Source: Gammaproteobacteria bacterium
GTDB lineage: Bacteria; Pseudomonadota; Gammaproteobacteria; Tethybacterales; Persebacteraceae
NCBI GenBank assembly: GCA_965221835.1
Contig: OZ244916.1
Coordinates: 528,750-592,749, forward strand
Length of the DNA stretch: 64,000 bases
Reading direction: 5' to 3'
The notes under the pieces are model-generated. The model ran no database searches and was not told where the DNA came from. It saw only the letters and a list, made by a program, of their open reading frames with translations. This document shows, one piece after another, positions 14,983-64,000 of this stretch. A program made the translations under genes and the position numbers. Each line of letters starts with the position of its first letter. Position 1 is the first letter of the stretch.

Positions 14983-15066
14983 GCCGAGGTGGCGGAATTG
15001 GTAGACGCGCCGGACTCAAAATCCGGTGTCGGAAACGGCATGAGGGTTCGAGTCCCTCCTTCGGCA
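14983..15066 (+). tRNA. tRNA-Leu (anticodon CAA)
   Basis: GCCGAGGTGGCGGAATTGGTAGACGCG-CCGGA-CTCAAAA-TCCGG, a long variable arm, then GAGGGTTCGAGTCCCTC-CTTCGGC-A. Folded by hand into a cloverleaf. Closely resembles E. coli tRNA-Leu. Confidence 0.9.
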
Positions 15067-15070
15067 CCGC

Positions 15071-15144
<74 letters not shown>

Positions 15145-15284
15145 CGGTTTTGCGCATTCCGGCGAAACGCGGCGATTTTTTTCTTAAATTGATCGCCCCG
15201 ATTTTGCCATCGCGCCCAAAATCAGGTATAATTTCCGATATATTTTTCGAGGGGATTTTTGGGGGATTAATGGGAGTAAAAACG

Positions 15285-18068
15285 ATGAATAAATGGCAAA
15301 AAGTTATCGGCAAATCCGCCGCGTTTTTTCTTATCCTTTTCGGGAGCGGAATTGACGATGCGCATGCGTACGGCGCGGCAATACGCCTTGACGACGGAAG
15401 TTTTTCCATCGTGGCAAACTACGAATCCGAACAAATCGCACAAGATTCGGTTATCGCCGCTTGCACAGACACCGCGAATATCGAAAATCCGGAAAACGTA
15501 CAAAGATGCAGACCGTCGGCGATTGTGGACACTTTCAGCGATGAAGTATTTCTTTACGCACCTTTTGCGGACAGTTTCGGCAGAGGGGCGGACACTGAGG
15601 CGGCGGTGTATGACGCCATTGACGATTGCGTTGTAAATAGTTTTTTGTTTTCCTTCCTCCCCGACCCGTATCAGGCGTGTCAAGAGGCGGTTCTCGGGCT
15701 GGAATCGAGAGAGATTACGGTGATTGTTGACGCCGACGAAGGCACTACCCGCGTTCATCGGGTTGAGAATATATTGGCGAATAATAACCCGGCTTTCGCC
15801 CCGATTTTTTGCGGAGACGGCTCTGTTGCGGATGATATTTCCAGCAGCGTAGAAACGCTTGATGTTACGCAAATAGTCGGCGATACGAACAACGATGGCA
15901 CCATTTCCTTGGACCCGGCGGACGGCGAAATCACGACAATTCAGCGACAACTCACCGTTTTGATTCTCGGCACGATTACTGTTGAGGTGGCGGGACCGCT
16001 TTCTTATACCCCGAACTGCGACCGGGTGGATCCTGCTTGTGCCACTGGTACGACTCTCCAAGTTAGCAACAATACTTGCGTAGCAGATTCAACCGCTATG
16101 TGTCCGGACGGGCAACGAAGAGATCCCGTTAATAACGAATGCGTACTGCAGTGCGATGCGCATTTGGTGTTGCAACCGAATCCCGATAATCCCGGCAATT
16201 CGGGTAATGAAAATATGGCATGCTTTCCGCGAACGGCGGATTTGTGCGGGTATTGGGAAACTTTTGAAGCAAATCCGGCGGGGGTTGGCGGATTTTGCGT
16301 GCCGACAACACAGGCGGATTGCGAGGCGGACGGGCTTATATTAAAATACCGGTTTGGCGACAGCAGCAGAGAAGGGCGGGAATGTCTTCCGCCGATTCGC
16401 GAAGAATGCGTATTCGGGACAAGATTCGTGCCGGACGACCCCGCAGTTGCGGAAAATGATGCGGCGGCGGTCGGTCGTTGCGTTCCAATACAAGGCGCAC
16501 AAGATTGCGAAGAATATGAAAGATTCGACAATGGCGGTTGCATCCCCAGAAGTATGGAAAATTGTATGGACGATGAAGTATTTTCTCCGAGGTTAAACGA
16601 TGATGGTACACCGGCTAACAACGGCGGCGTTTGCATTTTTGCGGGCGATTTTTTGCTGACGACATCCGTCACGCCGGATTCCCACGAATACACTTCCGAT
16701 TTTTGCGATGAGGATTGGCAATCAAGATTTATATTAAGCAATGACGGGCAAAATGCGGCGGAAGTTTGCGAAATTCCCTTAGATTTGGGCGATTCATTGC
16801 AAATTACTGTGACAGTAACAGATACAATGGAGACGTTGACATTAAATTTGGGCGGAAACTTCCAATTTAGACCGGATGAGAATGGCAACGCCCGTGTGGA
16901 CGGATGTCTTATCCGGGAATCCGCCCATTTTTCCGGAATAGTACCTTGCAACAACCCGCGATTGTTCGGCGAAATCGGCGGATTTCCGCAAATGCCCCCC
17001 AGTTTTGTGCCGGGAGACAGATTAACGGTTGCGGTATCGCTAATGACAACGAACATAGGCACTACTAACGATGTCATATCCGCCATCCAAATCACTCACA
17101 ACAATCAAGAAATTGGTCGTGTTGAAATGCTGACTTGCGACGAAAATGAAGAGGCAATCAATGGTATGTGCGTATGCGGCAATGGATTTGAGCGTGAGGG
17201 CGGAGATGGCAGAAACGCATGCGTAGAAATCATGTGTGAAGCAAATGAAGTAGTAGACGAGCAAAATATGTGCGTATGCCAAAATGGATTTGATCGTGAA
17301 AATCCGGATGGCACCGGCGCATGCGTGAGAACCGGAACCGGGTGTGGCACAAATGAAGTGCCAAGCGGGAGTGCATGTATATGCCTTCCGGACCATAGCC
17401 GGGATAGCACCGGCGCATGCGTGAGAGACAGCGGCGGCGACACGGGTAATCGTCCGACACTTCCGACACCTCCGACAACAAGCACCGGTCCTGTTGTCGT
17501 TGATTTCCAAAGAGACACGGCGAAAGATTCGCAAGTTATCGCCGGTGCCGTTGTCGGCGGTTTTGCGGTTTTCTACGGAATGTCGTATTTTCTCGGCGGC
17601 GATATTTTATACACCCCCGATTTCGGCTATTCCGTCACCGAAAACGGCTACTCCATAAACGGCGGCGGACGGGCGTCTTTCCGCAAAGACGGATGGCATT
17701 TTTATTATTCCGCAAAACAAACAAATCGGGACGGCGAATTCGGCGATTTACGCTACGCCAGCGGCGGCAAATACACCGGAGATATATTTACGGCGGCGTT
17801 TTCCGAATCCGTCAGCGGCAAAACGGTGAATTATAATGTGTCATTGTCCGCCGATATTTCGGGCGGCGTTTGGAATATATCGCCCGTCTATCGCATGCGT
17901 TCCCGCTTTCACGAAGGCGAAACAACCACCCGCAACTCGCTGAATTTGCAAAGCGAATTCCGCTATAACGGCTGGCGAATCCGCTCCTCCGCCGGATTCC
18001 GGTGGCGACAAACAAACGAATTCGCCGACAGCGGCAAATTCCGCATAGACGCAATTCATCGTTTCTAA
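15285..18068 (+). CDS. secreted Cys-rich repeat protein with C-terminal beta-barrel-like anchor domain (family member 1)
   Basis: Track ORF 15108-18068 overlaps tRNA-Val, so it is trimmed to ATG 15285 (GGGAG 9 nt upstream; ATG 15270 is also possible). Signal peptide MNKWQKVIGKSAAFFLILFGSGIDDAHA. Three CxxNE...C(V/I)C...ACV modules. Hydrophobic VIAGAVVGGFAVFYGMSYFL. The last ~155 aa show an alternating pattern ending FRIDAIHRF. Confidence 0.8.
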   Translation: MNKWQKVIGKSAAFFLILFGSGIDDAHAYGAAIRLDDGSFSIVANYESEQIAQDSVIAACTDTANIENPENVQRCRPSAIVDTFSDEVFLYAPFADSFGRGADTEAAVYDAIDDCVVNSFLFSFLPDPYQACQEAVLGLESREITVIVDADEGTTRVHRVENILANNNPAFAPIFCGDGSVADDISSSVETLDVTQIVGDTNNDGTISLDPADGEITTIQRQLTVLILGTITVEVAGPLSYTPNCDRVDPACATGTTLQVSNNTCVADSTAMCPDGQRRDPVNNECVLQCDAHLVLQPNPDNPGNSGNENMACFPRTADLCGYWETFEANPAGVGGFCVPTTQADCEADGLILKYRFGDSSREGRECLPPIREECVFGTRFVPDDPAVAENDAAAVGRCVPIQGAQDCEEYERFDNGGCIPRSMENCMDDEVFSPRLNDDGTPANNGGVCIFAGDFLLTTSVTPDSHEYTSDFCDEDWQSRFILSNDGQNAAEVCEIPLDLGDSLQITVTVTDTMETLTLNLGGNFQFRPDENGNARVDGCLIRESAHFSGIVPCNNPRLFGEIGGFPQMPPSFVPGDRLTVAVSLMTTNIGTTNDVISAIQITHNNQEIGRVEMLTCDENEEAINGMCVCGNGFEREGGDGRNACVEIMCEANEVVDEQNMCVCQNGFDRENPDGTGACVRTGTGCGTNEVPSGSACICLPDHSRDSTGACVRDSGGDTGNRPTLPTPPTTSTGPVVVDFQRDTAKDSQVIAGAVVGGFAVFYGMSYFLGGDILYTPDFGYSVTENGYSINGGGRASFRKDGWHFYYSAKQTNRDGEFGDLRYASGGKYTGDIFTAAFSESVSGKTVNYNVSLSADISGGVWNISPVYRMRSRFHEGETTTRNSLNLQSEFRYNGWRIRSSAGFRWRQTNEFADSGKFRIDAIHRF

Positions 18069-19295: not shown

Positions 19296-19886
19296 ATGAA
19301 TTCTCCCGGTGCGCAAACAAACGGCGCGCGGCGTCCGTCTCTTCTTTGCGTTATTGCCGATAAAATGGACGGAATCGTCCGCCGAATCGGATATGTTTTC
19401 GCCGCTTTCAATGTCGTTCTCATCGCGGTTATTCTCGCGCAGGTGGGAATGCGCCATTTGTTCGCCGGCGGTCATCAAATCGTACTCGGCGAGTTGGAAT
19501 GGCATTTGTATGCGACCGCGATGCTATTCGGAATGGCGTATTCGCAATCCGAAAACGCGCATGTGCGAGTGGATGCGCTGGCGCGTAACTGGACGGCGCG
19601 GCGGCGGGCGGCGGTGGAAATTTTCGGCGCGCTGTTTTTTATGGCGCCGTTTATCACAATCGTATTTTTGCACGGGCTGGATTATGTCGCCGATTCGTGG
19701 CGGGTGTCGGAGCGTTCGGATTCGCCGGCGGGACTGCATTATCGCTGGTTGATTAAAAGCGTCATTCCGGCGAGTTTCGCGCTGTGGTTTTTCGCGTTGA
19801 CGGCGCGATTATTGCGCGACATCGCGATTTTGCGCGGAGATGATTTTGCGTCTTCCGCCGCACCGAAAAACGCGGATGAACATTAA
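19296..19886 (+). CDS. TRAP transporter small permease (DctQ-like)
   Basis: Trimmed from 19167. Four hydrophobic segments. Sits between the SBP and large-permease genes. The start is uncertain (ATG 19296, or a later Met). Confidence 0.7.
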   Translation: MNSPGAQTNGARRPSLLCVIADKMDGIVRRIGYVFAAFNVVLIAVILAQVGMRHLFAGGHQIVLGELEWHLYATAMLFGMAYSQSENAHVRVDALARNWTARRRAAVEIFGALFFMAPFITIVFLHGLDYVADSWRVSERSDSPAGLHYRWLIKSVIPASFALWFFALTARLLRDIAILRGDDFASSAAPKNADEH

Positions 19887-21264
19887 CGAAGTTCTTGTTT
19901 TGGGAATGTTCGCCGCGTTTATGGCGGCTTTGTTTACCGGCTATCCCGTCGGGTATGTGCTGGCGGGAATCGGCGTGTGGTTTGCTTTGGTCGGATGGTG
20001 CGCGGATATGTGGTTCGGTGCTGCGACCGGGTTGGATTATCTGACGATGGGATTGGTCGTGAACCGGATTTATAAAGGCGTCGTGGAAAACTGGATTTTG
20101 ATAGCGTTGCCGATGTTTATTTTCATGGGAAGTATGCTGCATCATTCGGGAGTCGCCGAACGGATGATGCACGCTTTTCAATCGCTTTTCGGCGGATTGC
20201 GCGGCGGATTGGCGGTGACCGTGGTGGCAATCGGAATGATATTGGCGGCGTCCACGGGAATTATCGGCGCTTCCGTGGTGTTGCTGACGGTGATGTCGCT
20301 GCCGCTGATGTTGAAGCAGGGATATCCGGCGCCGCTGGCGACCGGCACTATCGCCAGTGCGGGAACGCTGGGAATTTTATTGCCGCCGTCCATTATGTTA
20401 ATTTTGATGGCGGATCAGATGGGGTTGGCGGTCGGCGATTTGTTTGTCGGCGCGATTTATCCGGGGCTTTTGTTGGGCGGATTGTATATCGCGTTTATCA
20501 TCGCAAAAGGTTTTTTGCATCCGGCACAATTGCCGTTGCCGGCGAATGTCCGCCCGCCGGGATGGCGCGCGTTGGCGGAAGTGGCGACGGCGACATTGCC
20601 GGCGCTTGCGCTGATTTTCGCGGTGCTGGGTTCCATTTTTTCGGGCGTCGCGACTCCGACCGAAGCGTCCGGAGTCGGCGCGCTGGGCGCGATTTTATTG
20701 ACGGTGTATTACCGCCGTTTTTCAATGAAAATATTGCGCGAAACGACGATGGAAACATTTCGCACGACAGCGAACATATTCGCAATTTTTATCGGTGCGA
20801 CATGTTTTGCGCTGGTATTGCGCGAACTCGGCGGCGACCGGGTGATAGAAGACGCGTTGTCGGCGTTGCCGTTTGACAAATATGGCGTGGTGATTTTTAT
20901 TTTGTGCATCGTGTTTATTTTGGGATTCTTTTTGGACTGGATAGAAATTACATTAATCATTCTGCCGCTGATGGGACCGGTGGTGGAAGGATTGGGATTC
21001 GGTTTTGACGGGCGCGGGGCGGTGGATTTTCCGGATTTGTTGTGGTTTGTGATGCTGGTGGCGATTACGCTGCAAACTTCGTTTCTTACGCCGCCGGTCG
21101 GATTTGCGTTGTTTTATATGAAAAGCGCCGCGCCGCCGCAAATAAAAATTACGGACATTTACCGCGGCGTCTGGCCGTTCGTGATCATTCAACTAATCGT
21201 CATCGCGCTGGTCGTGGCGTTTGAAGATTTAGTGATTTCATTGCCCGCGCTGGTGTACGGATAG
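19876..21264 (+). CDS. TRAP transporter large permease (DctM-like)
   Basis: Trimmed to MNINEVLVLGMF. About 462 aa and polytopic. Overlaps the small-permease end by 11 nt. Confidence 0.85.
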   Translation: MNINEVLVLGMFAAFMAALFTGYPVGYVLAGIGVWFALVGWCADMWFGAATGLDYLTMGLVVNRIYKGVVENWILIALPMFIFMGSMLHHSGVAERMMHAFQSLFGGLRGGLAVTVVAIGMILAASTGIIGASVVLLTVMSLPLMLKQGYPAPLATGTIASAGTLGILLPPSIMLILMADQMGLAVGDLFVGAIYPGLLLGGLYIAFIIAKGFLHPAQLPLPANVRPPGWRALAEVATATLPALALIFAVLGSIFSGVATPTEASGVGALGAILLTVYYRRFSMKILRETTMETFRTTANIFAIFIGATCFALVLRELGGDRVIEDALSALPFDKYGVVIFILCIVFILGFFLDWIEITLIILPLMGPVVEGLGFGFDGRGAVDFPDLLWFVMLVAITLQTSFLTPPVGFALFYMKSAAPPQIKITDIYRGVWPFVIIQLIVIALVVAFEDLVISLPALVYG

Positions 21265-28029: not shown

Positions 28030-28228
28030 GCGGGGTTTTTCGGCGGCGAAAATGCGTAAATTTATGAATTCCCGTGTTTGCGGCAAATTACAGAACTGTT
28101 ATTGCAAATTACAGAACTGTAAAATGGAATGCTAATGTAAAAACTTTCGCAATTCGGGCGGAAGTTTGTATTCCCCGCCGTTTTTTCGTATAATCTTATT
28201 TTTTACAAAACCGAAAGGGAAAATCATT

Positions 28229-29578
28229 ATGAAAATCAAGACCGTTCTTTTGCCGCTTTTCGCCGCCGTTTTGTTTGCGATTTCGCCGCCCGCTTTTGCT
28301 GGAGAAATTCCATTACTACTCCCTTGTGATGATATAGATAGAAAACACAATAAAAAGCATTATTCAAGAAAAGGAGACAACTCCTCCCACGGCGTGCTTA
28401 TTAGCATGGCTAAATGCTCTGACTCAGAAAATGAAAGAAGGCGGCTTTTGCAAATTGTTTCGGATAGAGGCATTCCTGCAGGAAAATATCTTTTGGCTTG
28501 GCTTGAGTATTCAGAAAATTGGGATGTAGAAGAAACAACAGATTTAGAAAATCTGAAAAAATCTTATGATTTATTTATGGAAACTTTGGAAAGTATTCAA
28601 GATCAGCCCGACTACCCTTATGTAAGTGAAATTGGTGATAAAGAAGTATATAATGACAGTTACTATGAGATGCGATTTGGAATCTTACCCCATTCTTGTA
28701 TTTCTAAAAGTTATGCACTATACGAAATGCAACTTCAAGTACCAATTGAAACTATCAATCAAATCAATAGATACGAAGATCTTCAAAAACAAATTTGCGG
28801 TAGTTTGGATGAAAACAATCAACCATTAGAAACTGCTATCAGTTATAGAAATAAAATTAAAGAACGTGTATTAGAAAAAAGAGGACATAGAATCAGCGGC
28901 TTTGATGAAAGATATGAAAGAAATTTCAATAAATTAGATAATGAAGAACTTGTAAAATTTTTTAGAGATTTGTTATCTTTTGCATTAAATCCAACAGATA
29001 ATACTGATACACAATCAAAATCGGAATATGCGGCGGCGGCGTTTGCGGCGATGTCGGAAAATGAACAGGCGGAGTTTTGTATTTCAATTCGCAGTCCGCA
29101 AAGACCGTGTTTTTGTACAACTGGAATTGTCTGCACGGAAAATTATTGCATAGATAGACCGAATTGCATTGAACCCGAAGATGTGGATTATGGGCATTTG
29201 CTAAACGATTATACGCCGTCCGAAAAATCGGCGGAAGAATCAGCGGCGGAAGAACCGGCGAACGAATCGGCGACAGATGAATCGGTTGCGGACGAATCGG
29301 TGAACGAATCGGCGGCGGAAGAATCACCGGCGGAAGAACCGGCGGAAGAAATAGCGGAAGAACCGGCGGAACCGGAAACAAAAACCGTATGCCGTTCTTT
29401 TGCAAACGGCATAAATCCCGACAATACGGAATGGGGAAGAATTGGTGCAAGCGAAGCGGGAGTAGGCGAAACGGAATATGCGGCTATCCGTGCGGCAATA
29501 AGAATATGCGAAAATGACGGCTTAACAGAATGTCAAACCGATTTGGAAGTCAAATGCGAGGAAGTTGCGGTACAATAA
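28229..29578 (+). CDS. secreted hypothetical protein: AT-rich unique N-terminal part plus shared acidic/Cys-rich C-terminal module
   Basis: Trimmed to MKIKTVLLPLFAAVLFAISPPAFA. The N-terminal ~270 aa have no homolog I recognise (18/60 G+C at 28321-28380). The C-terminal ~175 aa are near-identical to the C-terminus of 31610-32794. Confidence 0.7.
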   Translation: MKIKTVLLPLFAAVLFAISPPAFAGEIPLLLPCDDIDRKHNKKHYSRKGDNSSHGVLISMAKCSDSENERRRLLQIVSDRGIPAGKYLLAWLEYSENWDVEETTDLENLKKSYDLFMETLESIQDQPDYPYVSEIGDKEVYNDSYYEMRFGILPHSCISKSYALYEMQLQVPIETINQINRYEDLQKQICGSLDENNQPLETAISYRNKIKERVLEKRGHRISGFDERYERNFNKLDNEELVKFFRDLLSFALNPTDNTDTQSKSEYAAAAFAAMSENEQAEFCISIRSPQRPCFCTTGIVCTENYCIDRPNCIEPEDVDYGHLLNDYTPSEKSAEESAAEEPANESATDESVADESVNESAAEESPAEEPAEEIAEEPAEPETKTVCRSFANGINPDNTEWGRIGASEAGVGETEYAAIRAAIRICENDGLTECQTDLEVKCEEVAVQ

Positions 29579-29617
29579 CAAAACCGGCAGGGATTCCATT
29601 TCCCCGCCGTTTTTTTA
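29046..29617 (+). repeat. ~570-bp dispersed repeat, copy 1 (3' coding module plus terminator)
   Basis: Near-identical to 32262-32832 at the nucleotide level, with small indels in the GAAGAA/CCGGCG acidic tract. Confidence 0.85.
29584..29616 (+). terminator. Rho-independent terminator cassette (copy 3)
   Basis: GGCAGGG-ATTCCATTT-CCCCGCC (one mismatch) plus T7. Confidence 0.6.
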
Positions 29618-29640
29618 CAAAACCAAAAGGAGAAATTATA

Positions 29641-30777
29641 ATGAAAATCAAATCTATTATTTTATCGCTGTTTGCGGTTTTTGCGTTGGCAGTTTCGCCC
29701 GTTTCTTTCGCCGATAAATGCTCGTTATGCGGTCCTGCCTTTAATGGCGACATTGCTGAAATTAATCGTCTGCTTGCTGGCGGGGCGAATGTGGATGCGA
29801 CAAGTGAGACCGGCTGGACGGCTTTGATGTTTGCGACAATACAGGGACATGCCGAAGTTACCGAGATTCTGTTGGCGGCGGGAGCGGATGTGAATATGGC
29901 GGATAATGGCGGTGGGACGGCTTTGTATAATGCGGTAATACGAAGACATGCCGAAGTTGCGAAAATGCTCATAGCGGCGGGTGCAAATCCAAATGCGGTG
30001 GGTAAAGACGGTATAACGAGTTTGATAATGGCGGCAAGAAACGGATATACCGAAGTTGCCGAGATTCTGTTGGCGGCGGGGGCGAATCCGAATGCGGCAG
30101 AAGAGGATGGCGAGACAGTTTTGATAGCGGCGGCAAGAAACGGACATGCCGAAGTTGCGAAAATTCTCATATCGGCGGGGGCAAATGTGAATGTGGCGAG
30201 TAAGTCCGGCTGGACGGCTTTGATAGCAGCGGGATTCGGACATGCCGAAGTTGTTAAGATTCTGTTGTCGGCGGGGGCGAATCCGAATGCGGAGGATAAT
30301 GGCGGCTGGACGGCTTTGATAGTGGCGGCAAGATACGGACATGCCGAAGTTGCGAAAGTTCTAATTGCGGCGGGGGCGAATGTGGATGCGGCGAGTAATG
30401 ACGGCAAGACGGCTTTGTATTTGGCGGAAGATAACGGACATGCCGAAATTATTAATATCTTGGAATGTTATAAGTCCGATTTAACTTCGCTTCCGCCCGA
30501 AGTGTATGCCGACCGAAAACTGGTAGAAGTGGAACGGCAAATCGGCGAGGGCGATTATGCGGCGGCGGCGTTGACGATGGGATTTATCGCTTGTTATAGC
30601 GAAAAAAATGATGTCGCCCTACCGACAGAGTTTCATTTTAAGAATGCGCAGATATTGCAACTTGCCGGCGACAATAAGAGGGCGTTGACGGCGATTACCG
30701 CCTATTTGAAGGAAGCGGGGCGGGAAGGCGAAAACTATTTGGCGGCATTGCAAATGTTGGATGAGTTGGAAAAATGA
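29641..30777 (+). CDS. secreted ankyrin-repeat protein (about 8 repeats) with helical C-terminal region
   Basis: Trimmed to MKIKSIILSLFAVFALAVSPVSFA. Repeated G.TAL..A...GH.EV...LL.AGAN.N units. Confidence 0.9.
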   Translation: MKIKSIILSLFAVFALAVSPVSFADKCSLCGPAFNGDIAEINRLLAGGANVDATSETGWTALMFATIQGHAEVTEILLAAGADVNMADNGGGTALYNAVIRRHAEVAKMLIAAGANPNAVGKDGITSLIMAARNGYTEVAEILLAAGANPNAAEEDGETVLIAAARNGHAEVAKILISAGANVNVASKSGWTALIAAGFGHAEVVKILLSAGANPNAEDNGGWTALIVAARYGHAEVAKVLIAAGANVDAASNDGKTALYLAEDNGHAEIINILECYKSDLTSLPPEVYADRKLVEVERQIGEGDYAAAALTMGFIACYSEKNDVALPTEFHFKNAQILQLAGDNKRALTAITAYLKEAGREGENYLAALQMLDELEK

Positions 30778-31562
30778 TGAACAAAACAGCGTTTATCGTT
30801 TTCATATTATCATCGTTTCTTTTTGCATTTCCTGCATCGGCGGCGGGAAAGGCGAGAAGCAGTTTGCTGTTGCTGATTGATTCGTCCGGCAGTATGGGCA
30901 ATTCTATCAGTAGCACGAATCCGGAAATAAAAATAGAAGCCGCAAAAGCGGCGGCACAGGCGGCAGTTGCACAGGCGACACAAAAGGGATTGGTAGAAGT
31001 GGCGGTTTTGGCATTTGAGGGCGGATGCGAAAATCCCGTGCCGAGATATTTGGATTTTACGACTGACACGGACGATTTGATTGATTTTATTTGGTCTTTG
31101 CAGCCGGGCGGCGGAACGCCGATGGCAGATGCGGTTTTGTTCGCGAACGATTTTATGAAACGCAACAGCGTTCCCGAAGCGGTATCGCAATTAATTGTTT
31201 TGCTTGCGGACGGGCAAAATGGTTGCGGTGATGTAAAAGAGGCGATGCGGACTTTGCAAAATAGCGGGGTTATATTTCGGCATGAAACGGTCGGATTCGG
31301 TATTGAACCGCTTTCGCAGGCGGCGGAAGATTTGCAGCATATCGCCGAAAAAACGGGTGGCATATATCATCATGCGAATAATGCGAATCAATTGGCGAAT
31401 GTCTTTATGGAGTTGGTGAATACGCTGACGGTTTTGGATATTATCGGAAAGACCGGCGGAATTAGTGCAACGATGAATATATCAAATCAGAGAAATACCG
31501 TGCAAATCCAAAATAAAAAAGGGATTACACGGGAATTGCTTGACGGATTGAAGTTGCCGTAA
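30774..31562 (+). CDS. secreted von Willebrand factor type A (vWA) domain protein
   Basis: 262 aa. Signal peptide MMNKTAFIVFILSSFLFAFPASA. MIDAS motif LLLIDSSGSMG, then GGGTPMADA and VLLADGQNGCGD. Its ATG overlaps the ankyrin gene stop (ATGA). Confidence 0.85.
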   Translation: MMNKTAFIVFILSSFLFAFPASAAGKARSSLLLLIDSSGSMGNSISSTNPEIKIEAAKAAAQAAVAQATQKGLVEVAVLAFEGGCENPVPRYLDFTTDTDDLIDFIWSLQPGGGTPMADAVLFANDFMKRNSVPEAVSQLIVLLADGQNGCGDVKEAMRTLQNSGVIFRHETVGFGIEPLSQAAEDLQHIAEKTGGIYHHANNANQLANVFMELVNTLTVLDIIGKTGGISATMNISNQRNTVQIQNKKGITRELLDGLKLP

Positions 31563-31609
31563 ATTTTGTATAATCTCGTTTTTTTTACAAAACCGAAAGG
31601 GGAATTATT

Positions 31610-32794
31610 ATGAAAATCAAATCTATTATTTTGCCGTTGTTTGCGGTTTTTGCGTTGGCAGTTTCGCCCGTTGCGGTTGCCTCTGAATGCCCGTTATGCA
31701 AACCCGCCAAAAACGGCGATATTGCTGAAGTTAAGCGTTTGCTTGACGGCGGGGCGAATCCGAATGCGGTGTCTTATGACGGCTTTTCTACGGCTTTGAT
31801 GTATGCGACATTTTTCGGACATGCCGAAATTGCGAAAATACTGTTGTCGGCGGGGGCGAATCCGAATGCGGCGATTATTAACGGCGAGACGGTTTTGATA
31901 TTGGCGACAATCAAAGGACATGCCGAAATTGCGAAAATGTTGTTTTCGGCGGGGGCTAATCTGGATTTGGCAGACAACAACGGCGTGACGGCTTTGATGA
32001 TTGCGACAGAGAAAGGACATGCTGAATTTGTAAAAGTGTTATTAGAAAGCGGGGCAAATCCGAATGCGGTGGATAATGACGGCTGGACGGCTTTGGAGAT
32101 TGCGGAACATTATGGACATACCGAAGTTATTTCTATTTTGCAGAATTTTCGCCCGTCTATTTCGCCGGAGGATATTGAGTTTGCGCCGTTTGATGAAAAT
32201 AACATAGATTTGCAGGATGAAATTATTAAGGATAAATCAGAATATGCCTTTCGTCAATTTTCGGCGATGTCGGAAAATGAACAGGCGGAGTTTTGTATTT
32301 CAATTCGCAGTCCGCAAAGACCATGTTTTTGTACAACGGGAATTGTCTGCACGAAAAATTATTGCATAGACAGACCGAATTGCGTTGAACCCGAAGATGC
32401 AGATTACAAACATTTGCTAAATGATTATACGCCGTCCGAAAAATCGGCGGAAGAATCAGCGGCGGAAGAACCGACAAACGAATCGGCAGCAGATGAATCG
32501 TCAGCGGAAGAACCGGCGGAAGAACCGGCGGCGGAAGAATCACCGGCAGAAGAACCGGCGGAAGAAATAGCGGAAGAACCGGCGGAACCAGAGACGAAAA
32601 CGGTATGCCGTGCTTTTGCAAACGGCATAAACCCCGACAATACGCAATGGGGAAGAATTGGTGCAAGCGAAGCGGGAGTGGGCGAAACGGAATATGCCGC
32701 TATCCGTGCGGCAATAAGAATATGCGAAAATGACGGCTTAACAGAATGTCAAACCGATTTGGAAGTTGAATGCGAGGAAGTTTTGGTACAATAA
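31610..32794 (+). CDS. secreted ankyrin-repeat protein (about 4-5 repeats) fused to the shared acidic/Cys-rich C-terminal module
   Basis: 394 aa. Signal peptide MKIKSIILPLFAVFALAVSPVAVA. Ankyrin units. The C-terminus from SAMSENEQAEFCISIRSPQRPCFC to ...ECEEVLVQ duplicates that of 28229-29578. Confidence 0.9.
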   Translation: MKIKSIILPLFAVFALAVSPVAVASECPLCKPAKNGDIAEVKRLLDGGANPNAVSYDGFSTALMYATFFGHAEIAKILLSAGANPNAAIINGETVLILATIKGHAEIAKMLFSAGANLDLADNNGVTALMIATEKGHAEFVKVLLESGANPNAVDNDGWTALEIAEHYGHTEVISILQNFRPSISPEDIEFAPFDENNIDLQDEIIKDKSEYAFRQFSAMSENEQAEFCISIRSPQRPCFCTTGIVCTKNYCIDRPNCVEPEDADYKHLLNDYTPSEKSAEESAAEEPTNESAADESSAEEPAEEPAAEESPAEEPAEEIAEEPAEPETKTVCRAFANGINPDNTQWGRIGASEAGVGETEYAAIRAAIRICENDGLTECQTDLEVECEEVLVQ

Positions 32795-45146: not shown

Positions 45147-48519
<3,373 letters not shown>

Positions 48520-48536
48520 CGAATTTTGGAATCGTT

Positions 48537-48558
48537 TTCGGGCGGAATGTGTTATACT
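48537..48558 (+). promoter_or_regulatory. conserved promoter box TTCGGGCGGAATGTGTTATACT
   Basis: The same box and spacing as at 27017-27038 and 62380-62402. About 30 nt upstream of the RBS of family member 2. Confidence 0.5.
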
Positions 48559-48586
48559 TTCGCAAATACAAAAGAGGAGAAAATAA

Positions 48587-50641
48587 ATGAAAAACACCAT
48601 CAATAAAATCATCTTTTTCGCCGCTGTTTTGTTTGCGGCGGGATTGTCTAACATTTCCGCAAATGCACAACAAACGTACAGCTATTATCTTGCTGATACC
48701 AATTCCGGTGTCGGTTTTAATGTTCTCTATACGGCAACGGGTTATCCATCTGCCGATGACGCAGAAGATGCGGCTGAACAGAATTGCGCCGACGGGGGTT
48801 CAGGTTCTATTGATGATTGCCGAACACATTTTATTGGAAACAGAGGCGTGTTTGGAGACACGGAGACAAATCAAGTGATTGTTTGGTCTAATGAAACTGT
48901 TTTTGGTTTAAATTTTACTGGTTTGGGTGTTGATATTGCTGCCGCTCATGCAGATTTATTTGCGAAATGTGTGGCTTCCCGAGGCATGGCGGCTTGCGCA
49001 GATACCGCTTATGCGGAAGAAAATGTATTATCTTGCGGTACCGGTACGGCGGAAGATTTAACGGATGATTGCGGCGAACGATTTACTCCGCCGCTGAATT
49101 GCGATGGCGGAAGCACGACCTGAGTGGATGGAGACGGCGATGGAAACTGCGATTGTTTGGAAGATGCTCAGATTCAGGTAGATGCGGAGAATTGCCGTTC
49201 GCCGGAAACTTTGCAAGATTGCGTAAATGCAGGGTTCACTTCTTTTAATCCAGAAACAGTAATGTGCACAAACACCGCCCCGAATTGCACCGACAATGCA
49301 ACATTAAACGATGCGGGAGTTTGCGAATGTGACCCCGGATTTCCGATTTTGGAGGAAGAGGGCGAAAATACATTTGCCTGCCGTGCCCCCCTTGTCGCAA
49401 CCGATTGCGGTGACGATTTACCGGATTTTTATGACGGTTCCACATGCGTTTCAGATTGCGGTGAGGGATTTAGAAATCCTGCAAATGCGGGCGAAACTTG
49501 CATTGAGATTACCGCCGCCGATTGCGGACAAAATAACATGCCGGATTTTTATGACGGTTCAATGTGCGTTGCCGATTGCGGGGATAATTTTGTAAATCCT
49601 GCAAATGCGGGCGAAACTTGCCGCCCGATTGCCGAAGTTTTGGCAACCGTCTCCGTTTCGCCGACATATACCGCCGAATCATGCGAAAACGCACGATGGG
49701 AAACGGAATTTGTATTCAGCAACAACAAACAAGAAGTCGCCGAAGTTTGCGGAATTCCTGTTGAACGAAACGATAATCTTCCCGCCGCCGCCCGAGAATC
49801 GCAACCGCAAATCGCAAACGGCGAAATGGCAAACGGATGCATAATTAGAATGTCGGACGATTTTGACAAGGAAAACTCCACGCCCGACATTTCCGCCGCC
49901 GTGCGTTGCGATGACCCGGAACTTTTCGGCAATGACGGATTTCCGCAAATGCCCGAAAATTTTAATCTCGCAACCGACCGGTTAATAATTGTGGTTGCAG
50001 ATGGCAGAAATCGGATTTTCTTTAACGACAACGAGATTCGGATTGCCGTTGCATCGCCGAGAAACAACGATGCCGAAGTTGCGATTATCGGGGCGGTCGG
50101 TGTTGCGATGGCGATGTATGCGATTGCCGATTTCTTGCACGACGGTCGCCCCGCCGATGCTTTCGCATTTTCGCCCGAATTCGGCTACCGCATCAGCGAA
50201 AACGATTATTTCGTGCAGGCAGGCGGCAAAATAGAATACGCCGTTAACGAAAAACTGCGGATGCAATGGTCGGCGGGGCAGACAAACACCGGCGGCGATT
50301 TCGGCGATTTCCGCTATTTATCAAAAGCGGAATATAAAGCGGATTTTTGGGCGGCGACATTTTCGGAATCGGTCAGCGGCAAAACCGCCGATTATGATTT
50401 TTCCCTTTCCGCCGATTTACAAAACGGAATCTGGAAAATCTCCCCCGTTTACCGAATGCAATCCGAATGGAAAGAATCCGATTCCGGCATAAAAACCGAA
50501 ACGCAAAACGAATTAAATCTGGAATCCGAATTCCGCTACAACAATTGGCAAATCCGCCCGTCTGCCGGTTTCAAATGGCAAAATTTCGGGAATTTCACCG
50601 AAAACGGCAAACTCCAAATGAACGCGGTTTATCGGTTTTAA
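48587..50641 (+). pseudogene. Cys-rich repeat / beta-barrel-anchor family member 2, interrupted by one in-frame TGA (49121-49123)
   Basis: Track ORFs 48587-49123 and 49124-50641 are in the same frame, separated only by TGA and then GTG. Joined, they reproduce the member-1 architecture: signal peptide MKNTINKIIFFAAVLFAAG, an N-domain, Cys modules, hydrophobic VAIIGAVGVAMAMYAIADFL, and a beta-domain ending LQMNAVYRF. Confidence 0.6.
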
Positions 50642-50692: not shown

Positions 50693-50860
50693 TTTACTCG
50701 CCCCCGACATTTGTCGGGGGCGAAACAAGCCGCAGCAGTTTACTGCTGCAAAACCCGGCATTTTCCGCAAACGATAGACAGCGGCGGAAAAGCGGAAATT
50801 GCGGGGCGGAGTAAACTCCGCCGAACTCGTTTCGCCCCCGACAAATGTCGGGGGCGAGTC
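50693..50860. repeat. MITE/REP-like element: 30-bp perfect terminal inverted repeats flanking ~100 bp with two internal hairpins
   Basis: CTCGCCCCCGACATTTGTCGGGGGCGAAAC at 50697-50726 is the exact reverse complement of 50829-50858. Each arm is itself a palindrome (CGCCCCCGACA/TGTCGGGGGCG). Inner hairpins are GCAGCAG-TTTA-CTGCTGC (50732-50749) and CGGAGT-AA-ACTCCG (50807-50820). Confidence 0.8.
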
Positions 50861-61974: not shown

Positions 61975-62305
61975 GCCTCCCCGCCGTCATTTTTTACCAT
62001 TCCGATGTAAATCGGAATCTCCCCCGCCGCCGTAATTTTCGCCGACAAAATCCCGCCTTCCCCGCTGTCATTCCCGCGAACGCGGGAATCCATTTTCGCC
62101 GATAAATTCCCGCGTTCACGCCGTTTTTTGCGAAAAAAATGCGCGGGAATTCCAAAATTAATTTTCGCGTAAAATGTGCCGCCTCCCCGCCGTCATTCCC
62201 GCGAAAGCGGGAATCCATTTTTACCGACAAATTCCCGCGTTCACGCCGTTTTTTGCGAAAAAAATGTGCGGAAATTCCAAACTTAATTTTCGCGTAAAAT
62301 GTGCC
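61975..62305. repeat. intergenic hairpin-repeat array: two 125-bp tandem units plus a related upstream hairpin
   Basis: ATTCCCGCGAACGCGGGAAT at 62070-62089 and ATTCCCGCGAAAGCGGGAAT at 62195-62214, exactly 125 bp apart. Related ATTCCGATGTAAATCGGAAT at 61999-62018. The units 62056-62180 and 62181-62305 are near-identical. Confidence 0.85.
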
Positions 62306-62435: not shown

Positions 62436-64000
62436 ATGAAAAACACAATCAATAAAATCATTCTTTTCGCCGCTGTTTTGTTTGCGGCGGGATTTACCGT
62501 TTCGGCGGCGAATGCGCAACAACAGGTTGTTTTTGGTCCGCCGCCGCCCGAAGGAGACCATATTGTCGGAACGCAATGGGTTCCAGAAGGACAATCGGCA
62601 CTGATATATGAATTTACCGATTCTATTCAAGAACATTACAGAAGGAATTCAGGGGCAATATCATGGACAACATGGATGAGATTTTTGGCTATTAACAACG
62701 CCCCGGTAAGAGTAACCAATAATCTTCCCGTATTTCAGATATCCGCTACTGAAATGCGTGAGATACAACCGGGCGACAATTTGATTTTGTATGACCAATT
62801 GGAACAGAGTCATAACTTGACTCTTATCGTTTATATTCGGGCAGACAACGAGTATGGGTTGGCGATGAGTTTAAGTGTGGCAATTAATCCCATGCCTTTA
62901 TCGCCTCCGAATATATTTTTGAATTCCTTAACTTTTCGTTCGACTTCACAGCCCGCCGCAACAAATATCAGACCGGTAAATATCATATTGCCGGATTGCA
63001 CCGGCGGTGCAACGCTGAATGGAAATGTTTGCGAATGTGCAACTGACGCATTGCCGATATTGCAAGACGATGGCGGAAACTCCTTTTCCTGCCGTGCCCC
63101 TAACTCCGCAACCGAATGCCCGGACGAATTTTTTAACAACGCCGTTTCACCCGCCCGATGCGACCCGATTCCGACTTGCGACACAACAACGGAATTAAAT
63201 ACCGGTACGAATATGTGCGATTGCAGAACCGGATTTTCCGGAAGAGTAAGCCCGACAATGTGCGAAAGAAACGCAGCGGATTGCACGGGAGCGACTCCTG
63301 TTTTGTTTAACGGCATTTGCGTAGCCGCTTGTGAATCGGACGAAGCAAGAAACGCCGCCGGAAACTGCGTACCGAATCCTGCAAATTGCGAGGCGAATGC
63401 GATTACTAACCCGGACGATGATATGAATTGCATTTGCATTGACGACATGCATCAATTTGTTGCAGGTTCCACAACGGAATGCGAACCGATTCCCGCAACT
63501 TGCGGGGCGAATGCGATAAATGACCCGAACGATAATACGATGTGCGTTTGCGTTGACGAAATGCATAGATTTGTTGAAGGTTCTACGACAATGTGCGAAC
63601 CGAATTCGCAAGATAACATGGAAGAAACCGAAATGGGAAACGAAATGGAAACCGAAATGGAAGAATCGCAAAATCCGCAATTGCAACCGCAAAACATTGG
63701 AAGCGGCAGACCGAAAGAGTTTGCGTATATCGGGGCGGGCGTTTTTATTATCGGTTTTGCAGCAAGTTATATTGCAGGCGGCGATTTTCCGATATTCACT
63801 TATTCCCCCGATTTTGGATATTCGTTAACCGAAAGCGGCTATTCCGCAAATGTCGGCGGACGGGCGGATTTCCGAAAAGACAATTGGCATTTGTATTATT
63901 CCGCAAATCAAACAAACGCAAACGGCGAATTTGACGATTTCCGTTATACATCGGGCGGCAGATATAACGGCGATTTATTTGCGGCGGCATTTTCCGAATC
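62436..64000 (+). CDS. Cys-rich repeat / beta-barrel-anchor family member 3 (3' end outside the window)
   Basis: Absent from the ORF track because it has no stop in the window. I translated it codon by codon with no stop: MKNTINKIILFAAVLFAAGFTVSAANAQQ..., Cys modules (CEANAITNPDDDMNCICIDDMHQFVAGSTTEC twice), hydrophobic FAYIGAGVFIIGFAASYIAGG, then PDFGYSLTESGYSANVGGRADFRKDNWHLYYSANQTN..., matching the C-domains of members 1 and 2. Confidence 0.85.
   Translation, partial: MKNTINKIILFAAVLFAAGFTVSAANAQQQVVFGPPPPEGDHIVGTQWVPEGQSALIYEFTDSIQEHYRRNSGAISWTTWMRFLAINNAPVRVTNNLPVFQISATEMREIQPGDNLILYDQLEQSHNLTLIVYIRADNEYGLAMSLSVAINPMPLSPPNIFLNSLTFRSTSQPAATNIRPVNIILPDCTGGATLNGNVCECATDALPILQDDGGNSFSCRAPNSATECPDEFFNNAVSPARCDPIPTCDTTTELNTGTNMCDCRTGFSGRVSPTMCERNAADCTGATPVLFNGICVAACESDEARNAAGNCVPNPANCEANAITNPDDDMNCICIDDMHQFVAGSTTECEPIPATCGANAINDPNDNTMCVCVDEMHRFVEGSTTMCEPNSQDNMEETEMGNEMETEMEESQNPQLQPQNIGSGRPKEFAYIGAGVFIIGFAASYIAGGDFPIFTYSPDFGYSLTESGYSANVGGRADFRKDNWHLYYSANQTNANGEFDDFRYTSGGRYNGDLFAAAFSE

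Follow-up and report, generated by a model that had tools for sequence, protein, structure and literature searches.

What kind of protein carries a large cysteine-rich region in front of a short, conserved C-terminal domain that resembles an outer-membrane anchor and is absent from the current family libraries? The question is raised by a gene on contig OZ244916.1 of a gammaproteobacterial assembly (GCA_965221835.1), in a stretch of 64,000 nucleotides (contig positions 528,750 to 592,749) that is called the window here, and by two paralogs of that gene in the same window. The genes are numbered 1 to 3 in the order of their positions (Table 1). We propose that they encode type-V-like surface-display proteins, in which a novel anchor made of a hydrophobic helix and a predicted sheet of ten beta-strands would hold a hypervariable Cys-rich passenger, and we give this reading a probability of about 0.6. 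The anchor is unrecognised by current libraries, and the family that carries it is large, lineage-restricted, and hypervariable.

All three proteins have the same order of parts: a signal peptide, a variable Cys-rich passenger, a low-complexity linker (Gly/Ser/Pro/Thr or Glu/Met), a Gly/Ala-rich hydrophobic helix, and a C-terminal domain of ~155 aa. Exactly three family copies were found in the window by hmmsearch of all six frames and by tblastn. The signal peptides are of the Sec type; gene 1 begins MNKWQKVIGKSAAFFLILFGSGIDDAHA, genes 2 and 3 follow the pattern MKNTINKII.FAAVLFAAG...ANA, and none of the three translations has a lipobox Cys after the signal peptide. The anchor of gene 1 is 43% identical to that of gene 2 over 191 aa (BLASTP, E=1e-48) and matches that of gene 3 with E=6e-35; the N-terminal parts of the three paralogs are related only in part. 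The number of Cys residues is even in each protein (38, 28, and 22 in genes 1, 2, and 3), and every Cys lies in the passenger. A public collection holds a 927-aa protein (P0019) that is 99.7% identical to gene 1. A preliminary description of this DNA had reported three paralogs of this shared architecture, with EGF-like (epidermal growth factor-like) Cys modules and a ~155-aa domain that ends in aromatic-x-Phe. Open reading frames (ORFs), translations, and alignment agree with it on each count, and its sole omission was an in-frame stop codon in gene 2.

Profile searches place the anchor in no known family. With the full proteins and with the isolated anchors of the three paralogs, Pfam-A and NCBIfam gave nothing above the cut-off. 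The best sub-threshold Pfam matches came from gene 2 only, to Porin_10 (E=0.004) and to Autotransporter, PF03797 (E=0.005), the latter at 17.1 bits against a cut-off of 26 and over profile positions 23-162 of 255. Of 54 diverse anchors compared one by one with Pfam, no two matched the same family; PF03797, OmpA, OMP_b-brl, Opacity, and OmpW gave no match at E<=1, and a weak glycine-zipper match (DUF883_C, E=0.004) appeared in a single anchor. The NCBIfam autotransporter models did not match the three paralogs, and the YadA_anchor, HP_OMP, and TbpB-type models of Pfam matched neither these nor the 54 diverse anchors. A search of all PDB sequences with the family profile returned only two chance-level matches. 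We found nothing relevant in the literature on 10-stranded autotransporters, and a comparative-genomics paper on Tethybacterales makes no mention of such proteins (PMC8546597). The earlier claim that the anchor lies outside any described family is therefore borne out, the Autotransporter profile having come up only below threshold and OMP_b-brl, Opacity, and OmpA_membrane not at all. Judged by its sequence, the C-terminal module is a member of no known autotransporter class.

The structure predicted for the module resembles that of an outer-membrane protein (OMP). Given an alignment of 54 diverse anchors, AlphaFold2 returned a model with a mean predicted local distance difference test (pLDDT) of 89.5 and a predicted template modelling score (pTM) of 0.74; an earlier alignment of 10 sequences had given a pLDDT of 41 and was unusable. 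The model consists of a helix (query residues 11-35, pLDDT 65-88) and ten strands (38-50, 53-66, 69-80, 88-96, 100-109, 112-125, 128-141, 144-159, 162-172, and 183-190, pLDDT 91-97), which are joined by turns of 2-3 residues except at the b3-b4 loop (7 residues) and the b9-b10 loop (10 residues). All of the 50 best Foldseek matches in the PDB are membrane beta-barrel proteins, nearly all from the bacterial outer membrane (OM), with probabilities of 0.84-1.0, and they include porins, OccK, BtuB/Cir/FrpB, FapF, TamA, and PcoB. There is no close analogue among them (best E-value 2e-4; query-normalised template modelling score, TMq, 0.35-0.50), nor any autotransporter barrel. As 9ga1 is among the Foldseek matches, oligomeric lipid-trapping OMPs of the PopA type were considered and rejected as unrelated, PopA being a plugged barrel of 16 strands (PMC12228718). 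The preliminary description had read an OMP-like alternation of hydrophobicity from the sequence, and in this it is upheld; its guess of an 8-strand anchor gives way to a prediction of 10 strands, and the superpositions, as discussed below, are better on arcs of large barrels than on closed barrels of small size.

Conservation across the family agrees with this fold. Column statistics over 181 sequences reveal a strict dyad alternation along the strands. One face is aromatic and aliphatic: the residue that directly follows each of four tight turns is a conserved Trp (W69, W100, W128, W162), and ~10 residues along the strands from this ring lies another ring of aromatic residues, a spacing close to the hydrophobic thickness of the OM. 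The opposite face is polar, rich in Ser/Gly/Thr/Arg/Asp/Glu, and bears the near-invariant residues G59, R61, D63, and G92. The domain ends at most 8 residues from the C-terminus in 138 of 157 retrieved proteins; of these 138, 107 end in Phe and 26 in Leu (133 together), the usual endings are HRF, REF, RRF, and YRF, and the residues F184, I186, A188, and F192 of the putative beta-signal lie on one face. A distant member (P0073) has an additional C-terminal hairpin. Mean-field direct-coupling analysis (DCA; effective number of sequences, Meff, ~77) recovers the adjacent hairpins b1-b2 through b8-b9 and so lends independent support to the meander. It was restricted to the barrel columns, a first run having been dominated by gap artefacts of the linker, and b1-b6 pairs with the invariant P43 were discarded as artefacts. 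Meander, dyad pattern, C-terminal position, and terminal Phe, which mostly follows an Arg, are hallmarks of an OM beta-domain of the type that BAM, the beta-barrel assembly machinery, inserts. As in a generic BAM-assembled OMP, the module has a C-terminal beta-signal, an amphipathic meander with two aromatic girdles, and a likeness to solved OMPs.

The helix before the sheet is the unusual part of the module. Of 147 relatives, 127 have a hydrophobic 18-mer immediately in front of the beta-domain, with a median Kyte-Doolittle value of 1.98; Gly+Ala make up ~39% of the helix, and 57 of the 147 have small-xxx-small-xxx-small motifs that contain Gly. The 25 aa 5' of it consist, family-wide, of G 18%, S 13%, A/T 9%, and P 8%. 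Its summed free energy on the Hessa scale is positive (median +1.3 kcal/mol), and a helix with such a sum should pass SecYEG and would not be a strong stop-transfer. The strongest helix-barrel couplings are 35-69 (5.8 standard deviations) and 22-75 (5.5), followed by 26-75, 25-71, and 22-77, and mutual information with average-product correction (MI-APC) likewise puts 35-69 first, then 33-73 and 23-73. The coupling partners of the helix all belong to the hydrophobic face of strand 3 and follow a monotonic register that fits an antiparallel membrane crossing, and some pairs compensate in size (G/A with Ala75 versus Ile with Gly/Thr75). Small residues are conserved on the lipid-facing side of strands 2-5 (G60, A75, S91, G93, A102). 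Because of the strand-3 covariation, the charged lumen face, and these small lipid-side residues, the pattern is suggestive of a helix docked outside the sheet within the membrane and makes a lumenal helix seem less favoured.

This bears on the proposal that the proteins are highly diverged type Va autotransporters, with a shrunken PF03797-superfamily domain and the helix in the lumen as in NalP and EspP. Such proteins have the same order of signal peptide, passenger, helix, and C-terminal barrel ending in Phe, as well as closely spaced Cys pairs, and the single sub-threshold match of gene 2 to PF03797 points the same way. The near-invariant lumen glycines (G59, G92, G169) and the slim, Gly/Ala-rich N-terminal half of the helix could admit a lumenal helix. 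However, the helix is uniformly hydrophobic and without a polar face while the lumen side is rich in Arg/Asp/Glu, and the helix covaries (Meff ~60) with the hydrophobic face of strand 3. As 0 of 54 diverse anchors match PF03797, no NCBIfam autotransporter model matches, 10 strands are predicted in 155 aa against 12 in ~250-300 aa, and the top 50 Foldseek matches contain no autotransporter barrel, a type Va origin is very improbable.

The hydrophobicity of the helix and its covariation with the hydrophobic sheet face could also be read as signs of a protein outside the OM. The helix would then be an inner-membrane stop-transfer segment before a cytoplasmic beta-domain, or the sheet would wrap round it, hydrophobic face inward, to give a soluble beta-can like GFP that resides in the periplasm or medium; a rough volume estimate is compatible with a 10-strand can around a slim helix. 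Against the former, the positive Hessa sum should make Sec integration inefficient. Against the latter, a 10-strand can could not take in the bulky Trp/Phe ring together with the equally bulky C-terminal part of the helix without a clash, the helix couplings reach one strand only and not all round the barrel, and conserved charged pairs such as R61 and D63 on the polar face are unexpected on a solvent-exposed surface. The extreme C-terminal position, the final F or L, and the two aromatic rings matching the OM thickness argue in the same direction, and the Foldseek matches are all OMPs, without LolA, START, or GFP-like folds. A location other than the OM is accordingly improbable.

The family extends far beyond the window. 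An exhaustive search with a hidden Markov model (HMM) over 1.84 billion cluster representatives found 248 representatives with the anchor at E<=1e-3 and 183 at E<=1e-10, where a word-indexed protein search had reached only 8-19 relatives, mostly truncated gene calls. The relatives range from 76 to 7188 aa, those below ~300 aa being mostly truncated gene calls as well. Ten clusters that were looked up all derive from ENA/NCBI metagenome assemblies, several on contigs of ~2 Mb, and none is named. Scanning one genome per GTDB species with patterns of the close subfamily gave 53 loci, of which 51 are in one gammaproteobacterial metagenome-assembled genome (MAG; JBPCXA01, 'MAG_seacave_91') and 2 in a second MAG. 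A six-frame HMM search counts at least 54 mostly intact copies of ~390-970 aa in MAG_seacave_91. In 241 million JGI metagenome records the close-subfamily patterns found no close relative, and the diverse alignment has no stretch conserved enough for a pattern scan of these records. The gene families of Ca. Ichthyocystis were considered as a precedent and rejected as unrelated, being putative effectors of a type III secretion system in genomes of 35-38% G+C (PMC4943182).

The source organism can be approached through the LigA protein encoded in the window, which is 100% identical to one on an ENA contig (ERZ25072152, 408,783 bp, 523x coverage). Its nearest named relative is 'Gammaproteobacteria bacterium WSBS_2016_MAG_OTU1' (54% identity), and the next named matches are Burkholderiales at ~45-47%. 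WSBS_2016_MAG_OTU1 is Ca. Eurynomebacter symbioticus, a sponge symbiont of the Tethybacterales/Persebacteraceae (PMC12625764). Two ankyrin-repeat proteins in the window (29530-30777, Ank_2 E=6e-54; 31610-32794, E=4e-37) flank a VWA-domain protein (30774-31562), and beside them is an unannotated 470-aa ORF with Glu/Pro-rich 15/42-bp repeats. Eukaryote-like ankyrin-repeat and VWA proteins are typical of invertebrate symbionts. Since the closest named LigA belongs to a sponge symbiont and the window carries these genes, the source organism is probably a relative of the Tethybacterales that lives with a host. The stretch 28166-32794, which holds the ankyrin and VWA genes, has a low G+C content of 42-48%, suggesting acquisition by transfer. 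A 2677-aa family member (P0304) is recorded on a contig that equals in length (408,783 bp) ctg52225, the ERZ25072152 contig of a sibling strain with the syntenic ligA locus. Beyond the three in the window, further members, some of them much larger, are probably encoded elsewhere in the genome.

The passenger differs from the anchor in composition as well as in variability. Across the family, passengers carry 4.7 Cys per 100 aa (median), none of 98 anchors has a Cys, and the Cys count is even in 51 of the 57 family proteins that bear a signal peptide. Nearest-neighbour Cys residues are a median of 8 aa apart, 84% of them within 15 aa. According to a statement in PMC3546941 that cites Leyton et al. 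2011 and Jong et al. 2007, autotransporter secretion is compatible only with disulfides between closely spaced Cys; the close pairs are thus the pattern that a narrow-pore, type-V-like route would allow. When seven long relatives were scanned against Pfam, the anchor again matched nothing, and a single passenger showed Cys-rich domains of eukaryotic type (Ephrin_rec_like, TNFR-like, and NCD3G), so that the eukaryote-like passenger of the preliminary description is corroborated in part. The 5686- and 7188-aa members are also made of short Cys-bounded modules, and the gene-1 passenger has no match among PDB sequences. A ~140-aa 4-Cys domain is common to genes 1 and 2 (gene 1 aa 443-585 vs gene 2 aa 338-471, BLASTP E=1.5e-16; gene 2 copy at ~49598-49999) and recurs in 53 of 157 family representatives, usually just before the linker, with a median of 214 aa between its end and the C-terminus (jackhmmer). 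It has no Pfam or PDB match and might, speculatively, be a stalk or an autochaperone-like element. Gene 3 contains a tandem duplication of 114 bp (63366-63605; 2.1 copies at 79% identity) that encodes two copies of a 38-aa 4-Cys module, showing module duplication to be a route of passenger growth. We found no conserved neighbouring gene across the family loci, which fits a self-contained system.

Comparison between strains shows where the family changes. The public sample ERZ25072152 holds several co-occurring strains with syntenic loci. In the flanks of gene 2 (~12 kb upstream, 8 kb downstream) the window is ~98-100% identical to contig ctg52225 of this sample, whereas the signal-peptide/passenger region of gene 2 (~48510-50009) is 69-86% identical and the anchor 90-97%. 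By the Nei-Gojobori method, nonsynonymous (dN) and synonymous (dS) divergence are 0.20 and 0.26 in the gene-2 passenger, a ratio (omega) of 0.77 that rises to 1.4 and 1.7 in two N-terminal segments; in the anchor dN=0.029, dS=0.225, and omega=0.13. The omega contrast indicates that the anchor is constrained and the passenger free or driven to change. In ligA, which adjoins gene 2, dS is 0.025 and dN 0.001, and the ten-fold synonymous excess in gene 2 shows that whole alleles were exchanged by recombination and not mutated in place. Across strains the gene-2 locus holds alleles of 685, 689, and 728 aa, and in one strain three fragments, with passenger identities of 65-88% vs anchor identities of 92-96%. 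The gene-3 locus carries essentially different family members (passenger identity 20-51%, anchor 46-72%), apart from one sibling strain with a 607-aa allele whose passenger is 96% identical. In siblings an rve-type transposase/integrase gene adjoins this locus (L060 17257-18207, L061 17091-18041, L062 14567-15520), on different sides in different strains, and is probably linked to cassette replacement there. Fragmented family copies occur at other loci too, and the family evolves by birth, death, and replacement, like variable surface-protein families.

The topology of the chain bears on where the passenger would lie. In an even-stranded barrel both ends are on the periplasmic side. Since the helix ends 2-8 residues before strand 1 and the number of strands is even, a helix that spans the membrane would put the passenger outside the cell. 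It can be argued instead that the Cys-rich N-terminal part of an OM barrel protein is kept in the periplasm and never exported: disulfides normally form there and would hinder export through a narrow pore, and the loci inspected have no dedicated translocator gene nearby. Beyond the topology, the hypervariability between strains, omega values close to 1 or higher, genomes with more than 50 paralogs, members of 5-7 kaa, and eukaryote-like modules all fit an exposed protein, and a periplasmic passenger is scarcely to be expected, less so than any other alternative weighed here.

We infer the following course of events for the surface-display reading. The Sec signal peptide would take the protein to the periplasm, where BAM would insert the C-terminal module into the OM through the ...R-F beta-signal. 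The module would consist of a marginally hydrophobic Gly/Ala-rich helix, 2-8 further residues, and ~10 short amphipathic beta-strands, which would form a small transmembrane barrel, most simply a monomeric 10-strand barrel and less likely a protomer of a composite one. The helix would cross the OM beside the barrel, docked on its lipid-facing surface around strand 3, and a flexible Gly/Ser/Pro stalk would hold the passenger outside the cell. The small disulfide-looped modules of the passenger, some of them eukaryote-like, would be the functional and fast-evolving part; they would most likely bind ligands of a host, be it a sponge or another invertebrate, or further external ligands, and may have been diversified between paralogs and strains by recombination and cassette replacement.

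Several points weigh against this reading. The crossing of the OM by a multi-disulfide passenger is its main mechanistic gap. A transmembrane alpha-helix beside an OM beta-barrel has, to our knowledge, little precedent, and the helix-strand couplings, which rest on a Meff of ~60, could reflect subfamily structure. Position -3 of the putative beta-signal is mostly Arg or His and not aromatic, and R or E stands at position -2; neisserial and betaproteobacterial OMPs reportedly have, as a typical trait, a basic residue in the penultimate place. The habitat is deduced from that of a relative. The remaining points concern barrel closure. DCA gives no signal between strands 1 and 10 (score 0.38), at a power so low that the certain pair b9-b10 is weak as well (0.54). 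The model superposes best on 22-strand barrels (root-mean-square deviation, rmsd, 5.6-5.8 A; TMq 0.47-0.50), then on 16-18-strand barrels (~7-10 A), and worst on 12-strand FapF (12-15 A). In a simulation with idealised geometry a closed 10-strand barrel gives the opposite order, 3.3 A vs 12 strands and 10.7 A vs 22, and an open, weakly curved arc reproduces the Foldseek order.

These closure data are what would be expected if each 10-strand sheet were a protomer of a composite oligomeric OM barrel, for example a 20-strand dimer or 30-strand trimer that works like the trimeric autotransporters or TolC and still serves surface display. The Gly/Ala-rich helices would be bundled at the interface or in the pore, and the channel would be wide enough for small folded disulfide modules. 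Besides the missing strand 1-strand 10 covariation and the simulation, the good superposition on 16-22-strand arcs (rmsd 5.6-7.5 A, TMq 0.45-0.50) and the poor one on FapF and the small PcoB (12-15 A) favour such an assembly; the Gly-zipper-like small-xxx-small motifs of the helix do so too, and the conserved small lipid-side residues G60, A75, S91, G93, and A102 suggest a protein-protein interface within the membrane. However, covariation cannot separate intra- from inter-subunit pairing of strands 1 and 10, and the Foldseek rmsd and TM values are noisy, coming from 3Di-guided alignments. Hairpin register arithmetic allows monomeric closure (n=10, S ~10) when the invariant Pro43 is taken as the start of strand 1, and small monomeric barrels are the commoner solution. 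A composite barrel is therefore unlikely, though it deserves more weight than the other alternatives, and a closed monomeric 10-strand barrel is most simply taken as the form of the anchor.

Tentatively, and as a possibility that we would not yet call probable, the family may be a new class of OM secretion or display. It would combine a lipid-exposed transmembrane alpha-helix with a ~10-strand barrel or composite barrel, export multi-disulfide eukaryote-like modules and keep them on the surface of invertebrate symbionts, provide a cassette system for diversifying host-recognition proteins rapidly, and possess the smallest self-translocating anchor seen so far. If the surface-display reading is true, the module is a new anchor type for the type-V logic of a self-inserting, cargo-displaying single polypeptide, much smaller than the known autotransporter barrels. 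Its mixed alpha/beta membrane segment would then bear on how BAM handles non-barrel segments and on how folded or disulfide-bonded cargo crosses the OM. Current annotation entirely misses this gene family, of which a single ~2-Mb genome can hold at least 54 copies and whose members reach 7188 aa. As the most variable feature between co-occurring strains that are otherwise ~99% identical, it is a prime candidate for host recognition, evasion of phagocytosis, or phage-receptor variation. A 190-aa display module could also serve surface-display engineering.

Table 1. Positions in the window of the three family genes, their parts, and associated sites.
Feature	Coordinates	Strand	Basis
Promoter-like site 5' of gene 1, TTGCCA-17-TATAAT, 11/12 matches	15204..15232	+	consensus match only
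Gene 1, intact family member, 927 aa/codons	15285..18068	+	ORF and translation
Gene 1 Sec signal peptide, aa 1-28, ends AHA, then YGA	15285..15368	+	translation
Gene 1 eight consecutive tight Cys pairs, aa 245-427, with 4-9 positions from partner to partner	16017..16565	+	Cys positions and spacings
Gene 1 conserved 4-Cys passenger domain, aa 456-600	16650..17084	+	BLASTP, jackhmmer
Gene 1 three EGF-like 4-Cys modules, C-x10/11-C-x-C-x11/14-C, aa 618-712	17136..17420	+	regular expression
Gene 1 low-complexity Pro/Thr/Gly/Ser linker	17421..17519	+	translation
Gene 1 hydrophobic Gly/Ala-rich helix (AKDSQVIAGAVVGGFAVFYGMSYFL)	17520..17594	+	AlphaFold2
Gene 1 C-terminal beta-domain, 10 predicted amphipathic strands, end ...AIHRF	17601..18065	+	AlphaFold2, Foldseek, covariation
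Leader/ribosome-binding site/signal-peptide block common to genes 2 and 3	48537..48673	+	79% nucleotide identity to 62380-62522
Gene 2, 684 codons, one frame broken by a stop	48587..50641	+	ORF and translation
Gene 2 in-frame TGA	49121..49123	+	aligned Gly in ortholog P0037; GGA in sibling strain record
Gene 2 hydrophobic helix (AEVAIIGAVGVAMAMYAIADFL)	50072..50137	+	alignment of paralogs
Gene 2 C-terminal beta-domain, end ...AVYRF	50159..50638	+	alignment, hmmsearch; omega 0.13 between strains
Gene 3, stopped by the window end after 521 codons	62436..64000	+	ORF and translation
Gene 3 hydrophobic helix (EFAYIGAGVFIIGFAASYIAGG)	63717..63782	+	alignment of paralogs
Gene 3 C-terminal beta-domain, first part through ...AAAFSE	63792..63998	+	alignment, hmmsearch

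The in-frame TGA of gene 2 is either a nonsense mutation, making the gene a recent pseudogene, or a sequencing error. An intact ortholog (P0037, 721 aa) is 77% identical to gene 2 over its full length, and in a sibling strain the locus carries a 685-aa gene without interruption; the GTG-started ORF 3' of the TGA (49124-50641) would be without a signal peptide. A perfect 22-bp palindromic hairpin, GCCCCCGACA(NN)TGTCGGGGGC, for which zero occurrences are expected by chance, is found twice within 155 bp 3' of gene 2 (50700-50721 and 50834-50855) and once 3' of a family gene in another assembly (L001 10826-10847). It may be an element like the repetitive extragenic palindromes (REP) or the miniature inverted-repeat transposable elements (MITE) that is associated with family loci. 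Beside sibling-strain family genes lie arrays of 21-bp tandem repeats with units such as ACATTTCCGAACGCTCTGAAA (L061 14351-14709, 15 copies; L002 10870-11100, 11 copies), and the L061 gene call starts inside its array; the arrays could be a regulatory or phase-variation element of variable copy number. In the window, a 125-bp tandem duplication (2.0 copies, 92% identical; 62053-62305) stands directly 5' of the conserved leader of gene 3. Immediately 5' of gene 1 are tRNA-Leu(CAA) and tRNA-Val(GAC) (14983-15145); tRNA genes are common integration sites. Promoter-like sites are no more frequent in the region than in shuffled sequence, and the flanking protein at 19840-21264 had no exact match in one look-up.

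Set beside known systems, the family would work like an autotransporter; because it departs from type Va in profile and strand number, and likewise from type Vc, type Ve, the Hop type, and the 8-strand OMPs, it is not a member of those classes. With type Va proteins (NalP, EspP, Hbp) it shares a single chain of Sec signal, variable passenger, helical segment, and C-terminal beta-domain ending in Phe, as well as the absence of a partner gene, closely spaced Cys pairs, large paralog expansion, and giant members. It has no detectable sequence homology to them and ~10 strands in 155 aa against 12 in ~250-300 aa. Its hydrophobic, Gly/Ala-rich helix covaries with the lipid-facing side of strand 3, whereas the type Va helix is in a polar lumen, and its passenger is Cys-rich and modular, whereas that of type Va is a beta-helix. 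Type Vc proteins (YadA_anchor) likewise have a small-residue-rich helix directly before the membrane strands, and a composite barrel is possible for the family as well; however, they contribute 4 strands per chain in an anchor of ~70-100 aa and have a coiled-coil stalk, against 10 strands and a Gly/Ser/Pro linker. Type Ve proteins (intimin/invasin) have their barrel on the N-terminal side of the passenger, whereas the beta-domain is C-terminal in the three paralogs and in 138 of 157 relatives.

Slam/type-11 cargo has a lipobox signal and a soluble C-terminal 8-strand TbpB-like barrel, unlike the three paralogs, which have neither a lipobox Cys nor a TbpB-type match. Small OMPs (OmpX/Ail, the OmpA N-domain, NspA/Opa, OmpT/OpcA) resemble the module in size, dyad strands, aromatic girdles, charged lumen, and C-terminal Phe, but they have no N-terminal passenger or preceding helix, and their extracellular loops are long, where in the family almost every turn on either side has 2-3 residues. 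In glycine-zipper OM proteins of the SlyB/Pcp and Rickettsia 17-kDa antigen type, Gly-rich hydrophobic helices pass Sec and reside in the OM. These lipoproteins have helical hairpins and no beta-barrel, but they are a precedent for a Gly-rich hydrophobic helix in this membrane. The Helicobacter Hop adhesins (BabA, SabA) are said to be type-5-like, with a small interrupted barrel. That barrel is thought to combine an N-terminal strand with C-terminal strands, whereas the strands of the family are contiguous after a hydrophobic helix and its mature N-terminus runs directly into the variable passenger. In other respects the Hop adhesins are close in design: a small C-terminal barrel displays a large, disulfide-containing, variable ectodomain that binds the host, and the genes form multi-paralog, recombining families.

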